The translations under genes and the position numbers were made by a program. Below the pieces are notes generated by a model. The model made no database searches and had not been told where the DNA came from. It saw only the letters and a list, made by a program, of their open reading frames with translations. From Meiothermus sp. (GTDB taxonomy: Bacteria > Deinococcota > Deinococci > Deinococcales > Thermaceae), in assembly GCA_040290005.1 (NCBI GenBank), contig PSMF01000002.1, positions 12,542 through 76,541 of the forward strand: a stretch of 64,000 nt of DNA, given 5' to 3'. Below, piece by piece: positions 4,620 through 44,230 of the stretch; positions within the stretch are counted from its first letter, which is position 1, and every line of letters begins with the position of its first letter.

Positions 4620-5915
4620 ATGTATAAGCTTACCCCGGAGATGAAGCTCGAGGCCGATAAGCTCGCTAAGGAATGGGACTTACACCCGCGCTGGAGAGGC
4701 ATTCAGCGGGATTACACCGCGGAGGACGTGGTGCGCCTGCGACCCTCAGTGCTGCCGGAGCAGACCTTGGCGAAGGTTGGGGCGGAGCGGCTGTGGCATC
4801 TGCTGCACGAGCGGCCTTATATCAACACCTTCGGGGCCTACACCGGAGCACAGGCCGTGCAGATGGTGAAAGCAGGTCTGGAGGCCATCTACCTCTCCGG
4901 CTGGCAGGTCGCGGGCGATGCGAACTTATCGGGTCATACCTATCCCGACCAGTCGCTTTACCCCGCCAACTCGGTGCCCCAGGTGGTCAAGCGCATCAAC
5001 AACGCCTTGCAACGAGCTGACCAGATCGAGCGTTCGGAGGGCAAAAGCGAGCGGTATTGGTACGCGCCCATCGTGGCCGATGCCGAGGCTGGGTTTGGCG
5101 GCCCCCTGAATGCTTTTGAGTTGATGAAAGGCATGATCGAGGCGGGAGCCGCTGGGGTCCACTGGGAAGACCAGCTCAGCAGCGAGAAAAAGTGTGGGCA
5201 TTTGGGCGGCAAAGTGCTGATTCCAACACAGCAGCACATCCGCACCCTCAACGCGGCCCGCCTCGCCGCTGACGTGATGGGCGTGCCGAGCGTGATCATC
5301 AGCCGCACCGATGCCGAGGCCGCCACCCTGCTGACGAGCGACATTGACGAGCGAGATAAACCCTTTGTGAAGCCGGGCGAACGGACTCCAGAAGGCTTTT
5401 ATCGCATCAGGAACGGGATTGAACCGTGCATCGCTCGAGCCCTGGCCTACGCGCCTTACTCGGACCTCCTTTGGATGGAGACCAGCACACCGGATTTAGA
5501 GGTTGCTAGGAAGTTCGCCGAAGCCGTTCACGCCGCGTTCCCCGGCAAGATGCTGGCCTACAACTGCTCGCCCAGCTTCAACTGGCGCAAGAACCTCGAT
5601 GACCTCACGATTGCTCACTTCCAAAAAGAGCTGGGTGCGATGGGCTACAAGTTCCAGTTCATCACCTTGGCCGGCTGGCACAACCTCAACTACCGCACCT
5701 TCGAGCTGGCAAAAGGCTACAAGGAACGCGGGATGAGCGCTTTCGTGGAGTTGCAGAGCCTCGAGTTCGCCGCCGAAAAGGATGGTTTCACTGCGGTGAA
5801 GCACCAGCACGAGGTGGGCGCAGGCTACTTTGACAAGGTGCTGATGGCGATTACGGCAGGCCAAGCCTCAACCGCAGCGTTGGTCGGCTCGACCGAAGAG
5901 GCTCAGTTTCATTGA
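4620..5915 (+). CDS. aceA: isocitrate lyase
   Basis: 431 aa with the ICL signature '[11 protein letters not shown]' and '[10 protein letters not shown]'. Confidence 0.95.
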
Positions 5916-18080: not shown

Positions 18081-18290
18081 CAGCGATGAGCTATGAGCAA
18101 TGAGCGATGAGCTAAAAGCGTCTTAGGTCGTACGTCTTACGCTTTACGCCAAAACCACCTCATGTCCAGAACGAGGATTCTCAAACCTTGATTTCAACGT
18201 CCCAGAGGTGAGCTAGGTTTTTAGCCTTTAGCGTACGATGTTGGACCTAAGACGTACGATTGCCCTGGCTCATGGCTAGTTGCTCATGGC
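18081..18290. repeat. triple-nested heptad/loop-motif hairpin element (~210 bp)
   Basis: Outer shell: 'cagcgat gagctat gagcaat gagcgat gagctaa' / 'ggctcat ggctagt tgctcat ggc'. Middle shell: 'gtcttag gtcgtac gtcttac gctttac' / 'gcgtacg atgttgg acctaag acgtacg'. Core: 'ctcatgtccagaacgaggattc ... gatttcaacgtcccagaggtgag'. Confidence 0.9.
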
Positions 18291-20147: not shown

Positions 20148-20228
20148 AAGCGTCGCAAGTCTCGAGTCTCAGGTCTCAGGCCAACGCCAAGGCTTTTGAC
20201 ATGCGACATGAGACCTGTAACCTGCGAC
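20148..20228. repeat. heptad-periodic inverted repeat (word GTCTCAG)
   Basis: 'aagtctc gagtctc aggtctc' (20157-20177) pairs with 'ttttgac atgcgac atgagac ctgtaac ctgcgac'. Lies at the E1a/E1b junction. Confidence 0.88.
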
Positions 20229-20240
20229 AGAGGTGTTGAA

Positions 20241-21222: not shown

Positions 21223-22683
21223 ATGCCCAAAGAAATCGTCCTGCCCGAACTCGCCGAATCCGTTGTAGAAGGCGAAATCCTCAAGTGGCTGGTGGAGGAA
21301 GGCCAGCCGCTCAAGAAGGACCAGCCCTTTGTTGAGGTGATGACCGATAAGGTCACAGTGGAGCTACCTAGCCCCTACGAAGGCGTGCTGCTGCAAAAGC
21401 TGGTGAAGGAGGGCGATGTGGTGGCGGTTCACGCGCCCATCGCCACCGTCGCCGAACCCGGCGAGGTCACCGGAACCATCAGCGACCGGAATCACGCCTC
21501 GCCCATCAGCGACAAGAACCCTGAGCCCGCTCCAGCACCCAATCTTCAAGCCCAAGAAGAACGCAGCATCGTGGAGCCCGGCAACATCGCCGAGGACGAC
21601 GGGGCGAACCTTTCCTTGTTCAAGCCGGACGGCAAACAGGAGCAGGTGAAGAACCCGTTCGCGGCTCGGGCCTCCTCCACCGCGGTCGCTGAGCCTCCTA
21701 AAGCGGCAACCAATCCTCATGGGCGCGTCATCGCCGTTCCCGCCGCGCGGAAGATGGCTCGAGACTTAGGTCTTGAAATCACCCAAATTCCGGGCAGCGG
21801 CCCCAACGGTCGGATTCGGGTAGACGACGTAAAAGCCTTCGCACAGAACCCCCAATCCGCCGCTCACCCCGTAGGGACGACAGGCCCGTCGTCCCTACAA
21901 ACTCCGCAGGCTAAAGCACCGACCCCTTCGGGCTTCCCTGCGCCAGTCCAGTACAAATCCCCTAAAGGCTACCAAACCCAGGAAGCCCGCGTCCCTCTGC
22001 GCGGTCTGCGACGGGCGATTGCGAACCAGATGATCGCCTCGCACCTCTATACGGTGCGCACCCTCAGCGTGGACGAGGCCGATTTGACCGACCTTGTGGC
22101 GATGCGCGGCAGGCTCAAACCTGCTGCCGAAGCACAGGGAGTCAAACTCTCGTATCTACCGTTCATCTTCAAGGCCCTCGCTATCGCGCTGAAGAAGTTC
22201 CCGGCTGTCAACTCCTCGATGGATGAGGCAAAACAAGAAATCGTGTTGAAGGGCTATTACAACATCGGCATGGCGGTGGCGACGGAGGCCGGTTTGGTCG
22301 TGCCGGTGATCAAGGACGTGGATAAGAAGTCCATCTTACAGATTGCTCGAGAAATCAATGAACTCGCGGAGAAAGCCAGAAACAACAAACTCGCCCCCGA
22401 GGACATGACCGGCTCCACCTTCAGCGTCACTAATATCGGCTCGATTGGTGCCTTATTCAGCTTCCCCATCATCAACGTCCCGGACGCAGCAATTCTCGGT
22501 GTACACAGCATTCAAAAGCGCCCGATGGTGATGGAAAACGACGAAATCAAAGTTCGGCAGATGATGTACCTGTCGCTCAGCTTCGACCACCGTTTGGTGG
22601 ACGGGGCGGAGGCAGCAATGTTCTGCAAAGAGGTCATTCGGCTGCTGGAAAAACCGGATTTGATTCTGCTTGAGGCGGTTTAG
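21223..22683 (+). CDS. dihydrolipoamide acyltransferase E2
   Basis: Lipoyl site 'VMTDKVTVELPSP', subunit-binding domain 'AVPAARKMARDLGLEITQIPGSGPNGRI', catalytic 'SLSFDHRLVDGAEAA'. Confidence 0.95.
   Translation: MPKEIVLPELAESVVEGEILKWLVEEGQPLKKDQPFVEVMTDKVTVELPSPYEGVLLQKLVKEGDVVAVHAPIATVAEPGEVTGTISDRNHASPISDKNPEPAPAPNLQAQEERSIVEPGNIAEDDGANLSLFKPDGKQEQVKNPFAARASSTAVAEPPKAATNPHGRVIAVPAARKMARDLGLEITQIPGSGPNGRIRVDDVKAFAQNPQSAAHPVGTTGPSSLQTPQAKAPTPSGFPAPVQYKSPKGYQTQEARVPLRGLRRAIANQMIASHLYTVRTLSVDEADLTDLVAMRGRLKPAAEAQGVKLSYLPFIFKALAIALKKFPAVNSSMDEAKQEIVLKGYYNIGMAVATEAGLVVPVIKDVDKKSILQIAREINELAEKARNNKLAPEDMTGSTFSVTNIGSIGALFSFPIINVPDAAILGVHSIQKRPMVMENDEIKVRQMMYLSLSFDHRLVDGAEAAMFCKEVIRLLEKPDLILLEAV
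21871..21898. repeat. REP-like 28-nt palindrome inside the E2 linker
   Basis: 'gtagggacgac aggccc gtcgtccctac' is a perfect 11-bp inverted repeat. It is translated as ..PVGTTGPSSLQ.. Confidence 0.85.
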
Positions 22684-22713
22684 TCTTACGTCGTACGTCC
22701 TACGTCTTACGCC
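22683..22713. repeat. heptad arm (word GTCNTAC), left bracket of the four-helix-bundle gene
   Basis: 'gtcttac gtcgtac gtcctac gtcttac gcc'. The arm starts in the last base of the E2 TAG. Confidence 0.9.
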
Positions 22714-22714
22714 T

Positions 22715-23092
22715 ATGGCTGAGCCCTACACGAGCTACTTCGGCTTTGAGAATCTCGAAGTGTATCAGCTCGGCCTCGAGTTCATAGCAGAGATTTACCA
22801 GCTCACCAAAAGGTTTCCTAAATCCGAGCAGTTCGGTTTGACCAATCAGATTCAGCGAGCCGCAGTTTCTGTCTGCCTGAACATTGCCGAGGGGCGGGGC
22901 CGAGATGGCGATAAGGACTTTGTGCGGTTTTTGGGTATAGCCCGTGGCTCGCTGTTTGAGGTGGTGAGCGGTTTATATGCGGCGATAAAGCTCGAGTACC
23001 TGTCCGAGGCCCAGATTCAGTCGCCCCTGGCGAACGCCAGCCGCATCAAGGCCAAACTCAACCCCCTAGCCAACGCGGTGAGCAAAGATTGA
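22715..23092 (+). CDS. four-helix-bundle protein (23S rRNA intervening-sequence protein / Avd-like family)
   Basis: 'FENLEVYQLGLEFIAEIYQLTKRFPKSEQFGLTNQIQRAAVSVCLNIAEGRGR...FLGIARGSLFEV' is the hallmark pattern. ATG at 22715. Confidence 0.85.
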   Translation: MAEPYTSYFGFENLEVYQLGLEFIAEIYQLTKRFPKSEQFGLTNQIQRAAVSVCLNIAEGRGRDGDKDFVRFLGIARGSLFEVVSGLYAAIKLEYLSEAQIQSPLANASRIKAKLNPLANAVSKD

Positions 23093-23123
23093 GCGTACGA
23101 CGTTAGACGTACGACGTACGACC
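23093..23123. repeat. heptad arm (word ACGTACG), right bracket of the four-helix-bundle gene
   Basis: 'gcgtacg acgttag acgtacg acgtacg acc' is the inverted complement of 22683-22713. It starts directly after the stop codon. Confidence 0.9.
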
Positions 23124-23141
23124 ACCCATAATAGGAGCGGT

Positions 23142-24533
23142 ATGGCGACTTACGACGTGATTGTGATCGGCACCGGCCCTGGCGGCTACCACGCGGCGAT
23201 CCGCGCCGCCCAGCTCGGCAAAAAGGTTCTGGCGGTGGAGGCGGAGTTCGTGGGCGGGGTCTGCCTAAACATCGGCTGCATCCCCACCAAAGCCCTGCTG
23301 CACGCGGCGGAGGAACTCGAGTCTACCCGTCACAGCTCGGACTTCGGCCTCGAGGTCAAGGAGGCCAAGCTCGATTTCAAGAAACTGGGCGGCTGGCGCG
23401 ACAGCGTGGTCAAAAAGCTCACCGGCGGCGTGGGGCAACTGTTCAAGGGCAACAAGATTGACCTCAAAACCGGTTTCGCCAAGTTCGTCGGGCCGAAGAC
23501 GATTGAGGTGAACGGCGAACGCATCGAGGGCAATACCTTTATCGTCGCCACCGGCTCCGAACCCAACACCTTGGCGGGGTTCGAGGTGGACGGGAAGGAC
23601 ATCATTGACTCGACGGGCGCCCTGCGCGTCGAGGACAAGTTCCCCAAGCGGATGCTGTGCATCGGCGGGGGGGCGATTGGCTTAGAGTTCGCCCAGGTCT
23701 ACAAGCGGATGGGCGCGGAGGTCACCGTTATCGAGTTCATGGGCCAAATCCTGCCCGCCGCCGACCCCGAGACTGCGAATCTGCTGGCGAAAGTTCTGAC
23801 CAAGCAAGGCATCAATATCCGCACCGGCATCAAGGGTGTGCGTCAGGAGCGTAAGAAAGACGGCATCCACGTTACGCTTGAGGACGTAAAGACGGCCAAG
23901 CAGGAAGAGATCGTGGTGGACAAGATTCTCGTCGCCACGGGCCGCCGCCCGCGCGGGAAGGGGCTGGGGCTCGAGGCCATCGGCGTAAAGGTGGACGAGC
24001 GCGGGTACATCCCCACCAACGAGAAGATGGAGACCGGCGTCCCCGGCATTTATGCCATCGGGGACGTAACCCGTCCGCCGCTGCTGGCCCACAAAGCCAT
24101 GAAAGAAGGCCTGATCGCCGCCGAGAACGCGAGCGGTGGCAATGCAGTAATGGATTACCAGGTTCCCAACGTGGTCTACACCTCGCCCGAGTGGGCCGCC
24201 GTGGGCATGACCGAGGAGGAAGCGACAAAGGCCGGGTATAAGGTGAAGGTGGGCAAGTTCCCGCTCTCGGCCTCGGGCCGAGCGATGACCCTGAATGCTA
24301 CCGATGGAATGATTAAGCTCATCGGGGACGCAGAAACTGACTTGCTTTTGGGGGCGCACATCTTCTCCCCGAACGCCTCGGACATGATCGCGGAGATGGC
24401 GCTGGGGCTCGAGATGGGAGCTACCGTGACGGATATTGGCCTCACCGTCCACGCCCACCCGACCCTGAGCGAGGGCATTATGGAAGCAGCAGAGAACCTG
24501 CACAAGATGGCGATTCACATCGCCAATCGGTAG
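23142..24533 (+). CDS. lpd: dihydrolipoyl dehydrogenase E3
   Basis: 'GGVCLNIGCIPTKALL' redox disulfide, FAD/NAD GxGxxG motifs, C-terminal 'HAHPTLSE'. Confidence 0.95.
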   Translation: MATYDVIVIGTGPGGYHAAIRAAQLGKKVLAVEAEFVGGVCLNIGCIPTKALLHAAEELESTRHSSDFGLEVKEAKLDFKKLGGWRDSVVKKLTGGVGQLFKGNKIDLKTGFAKFVGPKTIEVNGERIEGNTFIVATGSEPNTLAGFEVDGKDIIDSTGALRVEDKFPKRMLCIGGGAIGLEFAQVYKRMGAEVTVIEFMGQILPAADPETANLLAKVLTKQGINIRTGIKGVRQERKKDGIHVTLEDVKTAKQEEIVVDKILVATGRRPRGKGLGLEAIGVKVDERGYIPTNEKMETGVPGIYAIGDVTRPPLLAHKAMKEGLIAAENASGGNAVMDYQVPNVVYTSPEWAAVGMTEEEATKAGYKVKVGKFPLSASGRAMTLNATDGMIKLIGDAETDLLLGAHIFSPNASDMIAEMALGLEMGATVTDIGLTVHAHPTLSEGIMEAAENLHKMAIHIANR

Positions 24534-28937: not shown

Positions 28938-29093
28938 GCAACTAGCCATGAGCGATGAGCCAAAAACCAAAGGCCAAGGACTTTCTCTCCATAAGAGAGA
29001 ATCTCGAGTCCCTTTTTTACCGTCCCAGACATGAGCTTGTTTTTGGCTATCGGCGTTTTGCTCTTGCTCATCGCTCATTACTCATCACTCATG
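28931..29093. repeat. nested heptad-periodic inverted repeat (words GAGCNAT and CCAAAAG)
   Basis: 'gcaatgagcaactagccatgagcgatgagc caaaaaccaaaggccaagg' pairs with 'cttgtttttggctatcggcgttttg ctcttgctcatcgctcattactcatcactcatgg'. The minC TGA lies inside the first word. Confidence 0.88.
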
Positions 29094-33814: not shown

Positions 33815-33912
33815 ACGCTAAACGCAAAACGCAAGGCGCTCAAGCCCGATTTGATACCTCACATCTGGGACGAAGAAATCTCGCGTTAGGAAATCACGTC
33901 CTGAACGCGATG
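33815..33912. repeat. heptad words plus loop-motif hairpin
   Basis: 'ctaaacg caaaacg caaggcg', then 'cacatctgggacgaagaaatc tcgcgttag gaaatcacgtcctgaacgcg'. Confidence 0.7.
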
Positions 33913-44034: not shown

Positions 44035-44175
44035 AGCAACCACCACAGCCCGGCTTAAGATGCCTACACACGAGATGTTGACGAGCAGAATTGCCGAGGG
44101 CAGGTAATGTTTCGGGGTGCAAAAGGCTGGGGCTCGAGGTAACAAAGGGCGCTATAGCAAATAGCTAAAAACAAG

Positions 44176-44230
44176 CTCACGTCTGGGACGGGGAAATCGC
44201 AATCCAAGATTTCTCGTTCTGGACCTGAGG
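44176..44230. repeat. loop-motif hairpin
   Basis: 'ctcacgtctgggacggggaaatc gcaatccaa gatttctcgttctggacctgagg'. Confidence 0.85.

Follow-up and report, generated by a model that had tools for sequence, protein, structure and literature searches.

A 64,000-nucleotide (nt) stretch of a Meiothermus sp. genome (contig PSMF01000002.1; hereafter, the window) contains a gene for a four-helix-bundle (4HB) protein that lies between the E2 and E3 genes of a 2-oxo-acid dehydrogenase operon and is enclosed by two inverted arrays of 7-nt repeats. Gene and arrays fit exactly between the stop codon upstream and the ribosome-binding site (RBS) downstream. We propose that together they probably form a cassette of the same kind as the open reading frame (ORF)-bearing intervening sequences (IVSs) of 23S rRNA, here situated between two protein-coding genes of an operon.

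Anatomy of the cassette and its protein

All features of the E2-E3 region lie on the + strand. The E2 gene (dihydrolipoamide acyltransferase; 21223-22683; PF00198, PF00364, PF02817) ends in a TAG codon at 22681-22683. The left arm, four tandem heptads followed by GCC (GTCTTAC GTCGTAC GTCCTAC GTCTTAC GCC; 22683-22713), begins with the last base of this codon, and a single T separates it from the ATG of the 4HB gene at 22715. The gene itself (22715-23092; PF05635/TIGR02436) has 378 nt and encodes 125 amino acids (aa) ahead of its TGA at 23090-23092. The right arm (GCGTACG ACGTTAG ACGTACG ACGTACG ACC; 23093-23123), the reverse complement of the left one, starts at the very next base. Outside the stem, a host leader (23124-23141) carries a putative promoter element, the -10-like CATAAT (23127-23132), and an AGGAG (23133-23137) ahead of the E3 gene (dihydrolipoamide dehydrogenase; 23142-24533; PF07992, PF02852). 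Pfam identified the operon neighbours of the 4HB gene as E1a, E1b, E2, and E3 of a 2-oxo-acid dehydrogenase. An earlier reading of this DNA (the original prediction) had run the left arm from the last base of the TAG to 1 nt upstream of the ATG and the right arm from the base after the TGA; these positions, the arm units, and the 378-nt ORF between E2 and E3 proved correct to the base, and the arms it had called reverse complements are 87% complementary over 30 nt.

That figure comes from a repeat finder, which paired 22683-22712 with 23093-23122 at a distance of 380 nt and also returned alternative pairings offset by one heptad (7 nt), and Tandem Repeats Finder gave a period of 7 with 4.1 copies in each arm. 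The flanking inverted-repeat score of the 4HB gene was 20, which is 12 to 14 standard deviations over shuffles, and this gene was the sole one of the 64 non-overlapping ORFs of the window to score >9; together, these two results exclude chance bracketing. Pairing between the arms was present in both the minimum-free-energy and the centroid folds predicted for the RNA, and it was predicted to persist at 65°C (pair probability, 0.82; duplex energy, -22 kcal/mol).

As the original prediction had remarked, no GGAG-like Shine-Dalgarno (SD) sequence is found in the 20 nt upstream of the 4HB ATG. No convincing promoter of the cassette's own was detected either, the only promoter-like match (TAGACG-17-CATAAT) being located directly upstream of E3. 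A -10-like box (CATAAT, TAGAAT, or GATAAT) stands 9 to 10 nt upstream of the E3 ATG in filled and empty sites alike (window positions 23104-23141 and the homologous position in L005 to L026, where L-numbers are the locus labels of the genomes and contigs compared). It suggests that E3 has an internal promoter and a near-leaderless transcript, and such a promoter would explain why insertions are tolerated at the E2-E3 junction. An Rfam scan of the window found no family, rRNA included, and the genes within ±6 kb of the 4HB gene contain no reverse-transcriptase domain; a recombinase and a transposase are likewise absent nearby.

We then analyzed the 4HB protein. It matches PF05635 (E value of 1.6e-35; 122 bits for a cut-off of 33.8) and TIGR02436 (6e-33; 113 bits for a cut-off of 24) and is thus a member of this family, which is very large, as >7,000 database clusters matched the window protein at an E value of ≤1e-5. 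The AlphaFold2 model (pLDDT of 92) consists of four long helices and has the XCC0516/BT_0352-like fold, with TM scores of 0.89/0.95 to XCC0516 (2GSC) and 0.74-0.77/0.80-0.86 to 2RLD; XCC0516 and BT_0352 were the closest folds and Avd came next (0.77/0.89). Avd is the pentameric RNA-binding cofactor of the reverse transcriptase of diversity-generating retroelements (DGRs), and its homology to PF05635 is acknowledged in the literature. To our knowledge, two crystal structures are available for PF05635 and no function is known. By analogy with these relatives, the window protein would be a pentameric, Avd-like bundle that binds nucleic acids. The ratio of nonsynonymous to synonymous substitution rates (dN/dS) was 0.07 to 0.09 among the closest orthologues at the same site (L018, L020, and L084), which implies that the protein is translated and constrained; as far as sequence comparison can tell, it is made and important.

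Two other identities were considered and rejected. The protein is not a DGR Avd, because the Avd equivalog model NF033474 gave 20.8 bits for a cut-off of 80 and because a reverse transcriptase is absent within ±6 kb and a template/variable repeat is absent nearby. An integron-like reading was dropped because an integrase is absent. The anti-phage defence models of PADLOC yielded no match to the 4HB protein.

Filled sites, empty sites, and exchange of the cassette

To size the E2-E3 junction in relatives, we collected E2 loci from 80 Deinococcota genomes. The genomes closest to the window were Thermaceae of the Meiothermus/Calidithermus group, and identical copies were present in three metagenomic contigs. 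The spacer measures 2 to 55 nt in Thermus and 49 nt in M. granaticius; in the M. ruber-type clade, it has about 71 nt and no heptads. It reaches 457 to 533 nt and houses a 4HB gene flanked by heptad arms in C. chliarophilus, C. roseus, three Meiothermus/Thermaceae metagenome-assembled genomes (MAGs), and one Deinococcus MAG. With filled and empty sites both present, the E2-E3 site is polymorphic, and the insertion that had been predicted there, with this very comparison proposed as its check, holds. The 3' end of the M. granaticius spacer reads TTTAGCTCATAATAGG, and in L006 and L007 this sequence is made of the last arm heptad and the E3 leader; its retention suggests that the cassette was lost in M. 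granaticius rather than that the site was never filled. Comparison of filled with empty sites revealed no direct repeat at either arm boundary. We also looked for filled/empty polymorphism within the species, and an exact lookup of the E3 protein gave two contigs, both filled.

The E2-E3 junction seems to accept small genes in general, as one Meiothermus MAG (L017, 4705-5247) has an unrelated 116-aa ORF in the spacer (4731-5081) that has no Pfam match and no heptad arms. In a Deinococcales MAG (L070, 4799-5773), E2 is followed by a 324-aa ORF without a Pfam match and with a flanking inverted-repeat score of 19.

Evaluation of the arms at this site revealed two types, which are discordant with the host tree: type A (GTCNTAC) in the window, L018, L020, L084, L171 to L176, and a frameshifted copy in L004, and type B (ACGCNNN) in L006 and L007. 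The sister species C. chliarophilus (L007, type B) and C. roseus (L018, type A) are 93%, 98%, and 94% identical in E2, E3, and E1b, respectively, versus 56% for their 4HB proteins, and their heptads are ACGCAAA versus GTCTTAC. The window (type A) and L006 (type B) show the same pattern, with 90% identity for E2, 92% for E3, and 58% for 4HB. In the Calidithermus pair, DNA identity is 90 to 100% across E2 (the final ∼40 nt being somewhat more diverged), 33 to 67% from the E2 stop to the E3 RBS, and 87 to 100% in E3. Since the drop is confined to this stop-to-RBS interval, gene and arms have been exchanged as a unit, and the conserved flanks point to homologous recombination as the likely route.

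L004 contains a second, intact armed 4HB gene in its E1b-E2 spacer, with a third heptad type (CGCGTAT/GCGATAG). Its type A copy at E2-E3 (4739-5100) is frameshifted, with two tblastn segments in different frames, and the arms are still 87% complementary; here, the arms may outlive the gene, or the frameshift may be an assembly error. The copy in L032 is degenerate and has lost the invariant N-I-x-E-G motif. The original prediction of a mobile cassette is supported by the swap of gene and arms between sister species with flanks of 90 to 100% identity and by the second copy in L004, with the caveat that signs of recent transposition and of a mobility enzyme are lacking. "Mobile" should accordingly be understood as a statement about history rather than about demonstrated activity.

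Arms across the PF05635 family and gene-less hairpins

A metagenome scan seeded with 18 closer sequences (an alignment of 48 sequences had no stretch conserved enough) returned 80 loci with GC contents of 33% to 69%. We scored flanking inverted repeats in windows of -90 to +30 at the start and -30 to +90 at the stop of each gene, with a threshold of ≥11. Arms were found at 38 of 62 distinct 4HB loci (61%), compared to 8 of 96 neighbouring genes of the same loci (8%) and 15 of 508 genes of the Deinococcota loci (3%), only one of the latter 15 reaching ≥14. Among the armed 4HB loci, the period is 7 in 28 cases and 8 in 6, the median arm measures 29.5 nt, and the median inter-arm distance is 395 nt (interquartile range, 382 to 433 nt). 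The repeat unit varies by locus (e.g., GTTCATA, GGAGCTG, ACGCTGT, CGTGATT, and the octad ATTAGAGG), yet the two arms always match one another.

Most copies are flanked at short distances by genes of the same direction, and their host operons include acyl-CoA dehydrogenase/electron transfer flavoprotein genes, MoxR-type AAA/VWA genes, rmlA, rmlB, and rmlD, and ferredoxin/glutamate synthase genes. In Deinococcus koreensis (L164), the cassette is located between a fadB-like gene and a hydrolase gene (heptads GCAGATG/GCCATCT). In Luteolibacter sp., it separates livG from livF, the two ATPase genes of a branched-chain amino-acid ABC transporter (TTGATGG/CCATCAA; 29 nt, 86%, 379 nt apart), and in Xanthomonas campestris, a homologue of XCC0516, the crystallised prototype (2GSC), stands between accB and accC (four GGGAATC units and their inverse; 30 nt, 87%, 383 nt apart). 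Two 4HB cassettes are found immediately downstream of same-strand tRNA genes (L128, 686-1164; L124, 944-1445), and these tRNA-adjacent copies are a third kind of host transcript beside rRNA and operon mRNA. Rfam, run on 20 4HB loci, detected no rRNA and only the tRNAs adjoining L128 and L124/L123.

In several family members, the annotated N-terminus is the translated left arm, such as MADGRR or MAEGRR in Deinococcus (MADGRR in D. koreensis, L164, 2480-2950). In X. campestris (L167, 1927-1975), the GTG start falls within the GGGAATC array and the translation matches residues 1 to 10 of crystallised XCC0516, and in L006 the 4HB ORF continues through the right arm. Start and stop annotations of PF05635 genes are probably often wrong.

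The origin and purpose of rRNA IVSs, which have been known since 1990, are unsettled. The IVS of Coxiella burnetii is a 428-nt insertion in helix 45 of 23S rRNA, with a terminal-inverted-repeat stem of 28 bp and an S23p (PF05635) ORF (PMC4990558). Three tandem GACAGAT heptamers and a degenerate fourth abut its ATG, the SD sequence is poor, and the copy number of the heptamers varies between strains; the stem is cut by RNase III, and the ORF is decaying and probably untranslated (PMC4990558). PF05635 members also occur in 16S and 23S insertions of Candidate Phyla Radiation bacteria (PMC11270868). The heptamer stem of Coxiella, together with the 61% of armed loci against 3 to 8% in controls, bears out the idea, raised with the window cassette and checked here on other family members, that this protein family is linked to stem-loops.

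The window also contains about ten heptad hairpins, mostly in spacers between co-directional genes, and at least 5 of its 39 spacers have heptad arrays. The loops of the gene-less hairpins span 3 to 162 nt, a wider range than the 10 to 60 nt given originally. One such hairpin (18119-18254; arms 18119-18154 and 18219-18254) is built of GTCTTAG/GTCGTAC words that match type A arms at 18 of 21 positions (null maximum, 14), and a half-array at 33815 matches type B words equally well (18/21; null maxima, 14 to 15). Another, made of GTCGCAA GTCTCGA GTCTCAG GTCTCAG and their inverse, takes up the E1a-E1b spacer of the 4HB-bearing operon (20152-20235) and is one of two gene-less hairpins that weakly resemble the arms of the L089 cassette (16/21). 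The commonest hairpin word of the window, AGCNATG, has no cassette counterpart among the sampled loci. Gene-less hairpins may have arisen from cassettes by deletion or may depend on them.

The 18119-18254 hairpin is the inner shell of a nested element (18081-18290), in which outer AGCGATG-type arms surround the GTCTTAG/GTCGTAC arms and these surround a conserved core; the element looks like a hairpin inserted within the loop of another, and it does share words with the cassette arms as first noticed. The core, ∼80 nt long, recurs in the loops of four heptad elements with differing arm types. It comprises CGTCCCAGANNTGAGCT and then GTTTTTAGC, preceded by a small GTCCAGAACGAG hairpin, with four matches (18198-18214 and 29021-29037 on the + strand, 33856-33872 and 44174-44190 on the - strand) where 0.16 is expected. 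Rfam has no match for it; it could be a small RNA or the core of a miniature inverted-repeat transposable element (MITE). We dropped the idea that it is a remnant of the 4HB 3' end, as the similarity was too weak and tblastn gave no match.

The hairpins bring up the first alternative, that of an autonomous/non-autonomous pair, in which the 4HB pentamer would recognise the heptads and promote insertion or maintenance of hairpins, and the gene-less hairpins would be MITE-like dependants or deletion derivatives. The 18/21 matches of the 18119-18254 and 33815 arrays to type A and type B words agree with such a pair, as do the usual four to five heptads per arm set beside a homopentameric protein family (XCC0516, as cited in PMC4990558). 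A role in mobility was in fact proposed for the IVS ORF by Ralph and McClelland, as cited in the same paper (PMC4990558). Rehm et al. (2015) put the number of GGGAATC arrays at about 186 per Xanthomonas genome; most have four units, and 70 pairs are inverted (70 to 75 convergent pairs). The authors treated the arrays as G-quadruplex-forming simple repeats without mention of the four-helix-bundle gene (PMC4692102), which in X. campestris is flanked by the same units. The structural relative Avd, moreover, is an RNA-binding retroelement cofactor. On the other side, a catalytic domain, reverse transcriptase, or recombinase is absent nearby, AGCNATG lacks a matching cassette in the sample, many word types share one genome with a single 4HB gene within the window, and recent transposition was not seen, so that we consider this alternative unlikely.

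Proposed mechanism, remaining alternatives, and known systems

We propose that an IVS-type cassette, without a visible promoter or SD sequence of its own, would be cotranscribed with its host operon. The arms would pair on the transcript as a ∼30-bp duplex, which would seal off the whole insert and draw the two host flanks close to each other. By analogy with rRNA IVSs, this duplex could be a substrate of RNase III, the insert being excised or structurally bypassed. E3 would keep its SD sequence and its conserved -10-like box outside the stem, which argues that the insertion is not polar; with the insert sealed off or excised as well, the insertion would be nearly harmless. As the last base of the E2 stop is also the first of the stem, translation of the 4HB gene is probably coupled to termination of E2 31 nt upstream, or it may take place after processing. 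Insertions into spacers, tRNA flanks, and tips of rRNA helices would be rare and residence long. The host bacteria are naturally transformable, and gene and arms would be swapped as a unit among related genomes, probably through homologous recombination within the conserved genes on either side, with later decay into pseudogenes and possibly into gene-less hairpins.

Several observations weigh against an IVS-type cassette. Neither a recombinase, a transposase, nor a target-site duplication was seen, and strong purifying selection is unusual in a purely selfish passenger. Some 40% of the sampled family members are without detectable arms. Mismatches within the arms, read on the sense strand, show no excess of G-U over A-C (23 versus 36; p = 0.12), so selection on the structure in RNA rather than in DNA is not proven, and cutting of the E2-E3 stem by RNase III is presumed by analogy with rRNA IVSs. 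The closest homologues (66 to 74% identical) are all at the E2-E3 site where the context is readable, and in a search for identical cassettes at other sites, P0007 was located at E2-E3 in all six places listed. This points to long residence with no sign of recent transposition and fits a domesticated gene of long standing just as well. Some genomes, such as L104, have heptad arrays in nearly every spacer, around other genes too, and the association between arms and gene could in part reflect a shared habitat.

In L104 (225-1480), a radical-SAM/SPASM gene (375-1328) lies between inverted CCTAGAG-type arrays with a score of 27.5. Among other bracketed ORFs, that of L097 encodes a response-regulator receiver domain, and those of L155, L070, and L017 have no Pfam match.

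Domestication is at the heart of the second alternative, in which 4HB is a resident host gene that serves the cell, the arms form a stem that regulates or stabilises its expression in cis (for example, by masking the start codon or protecting the mRNA ends), and the scatter over operons results from ordinary gene shuffling. The strong purifying selection, the long residence at one site, and the end of the stem 1 nt from the ATG all fit, but such a gene would hardly leave empty sites in close relatives, be replaced as a whole unit between sister species, decay recurrently, or turn up in contexts as unrelated as fatty-acid, rhamnose, ABC transporter, acc, and cas operons, tRNA, and rRNA. The Coxiella copy, moreover, is probably not expressed (PMC4990558), and we judge this alternative to be quite improbable. 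A third one, that heptad hairpins are generic spacer repeats generated by slippage and quasi-palindrome correction and that a small spacer gene merely ends up between two arrays, could draw on the arrays in at least 5 of 39 window spacers and on those that flank the radical-SAM gene and fill every spacer of L104, but it is already disfavoured and very improbable in view of the single bracketed ORF among 64, the 8% of same-locus controls versus 61%, the stereotyped arm length and loop size across phyla, and the arms that travel with the gene between sister species.

Beyond the IVS-type cassette itself, we tentatively put forward a broader and rather unlikely proposal, namely, that PF05635 proteins and inverted heptad arrays are one widespread class of elements, found in rRNA helices as well as in tRNA flanks and operon spacers. 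The pentamer would bind its own tandem heptads at a ratio of about one subunit to one heptad so as to protect the hairpin, process it, or propagate it, and the hundreds of gene-less hairpins per genome would be non-autonomous relatives. If true, a single class of elements would explain both the origin of rRNA IVSs and the long-noted excess of heptamers in bacterial genomes. X. campestris and cultured Calidithermus are tractable systems for studying processing and the binding of the protein to the repeats. The cassettes also call for caution before a 4HB gene is taken to work together with the operon that hosts it. The copies within cas operons are a case in point: Zhang et al. listed 18 such genes (e.g., cmr3-IVP-cmr2) as CRISPR-Cas-associated functions (PMC3936711).

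We found no prior description of a general cassette of this type in the openly searchable literature, which leaves most subscription journals outside, and several known systems share part of its features. Like integron gene cassettes, it is a promoterless single-gene unit that is swapped whole and expressed by host transcription; unlike them, it has inverted arms on both sides of the gene and neither attC/attI sites nor an IntI integrase. It resembles MITEs and repetitive extragenic palindromes/bacterial interspersed mosaic elements in its short, dispersed, intergenic, hairpin-forming inverted repeats and in the gene-less copies beside a gene-bearing one, and differs from them in the locus-specific tandem 7-nt arm units and in the absence of a transposase, RAYT gene, or target-site duplication. 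With DGR Avd (bAvd, PDB 4DWL; DGR ribonucleoprotein, 8UB7), it shares a four-helix-bundle fold, both families being pentameric; the equivalog score, however, is far under the Avd cut-off (20.8 versus 80 bits), and no reverse transcriptase, template, or variable repeat is nearby. The Xanthomonas GGGAATC arrays are likewise intergenic, mostly of four heptads, and often arranged in inverted pairs able to form stem-loops, one of which flanks the XCC0516 homologue, the heptad being GTCNTAC in our case.

The closest likeness in overall layout is to the 23S rRNA IVSs of Leptospira and Coxiella, a comparison for which we relied on the published description (PMC4990558): a PF05635 ORF of ∼120 to 130 aa, inverted repeats of ∼28 to 30 bp, and a total of ∼430 to 440 nt. 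As in Coxiella, tandem heptamers directly precede the ATG (four here, ending 1 nt upstream), and an SD sequence is poor or absent. Unlike rRNA IVSs, which sit in 23S helices 9, 25, or 45 or in 16S rRNA, the window cassette is in an E2-E3 mRNA spacer, and unlike the decaying, probably untranslated Coxiella ORF, its ORF is under strong purifying selection. ORF-bearing IVSs, the XCC0516 prototype, and the Xanthomonas GGGAATC pairs appear unconnected in the searchable literature, and they have one stereotyped architecture in common, which makes the rRNA IVS look like a special case of a general cassette.

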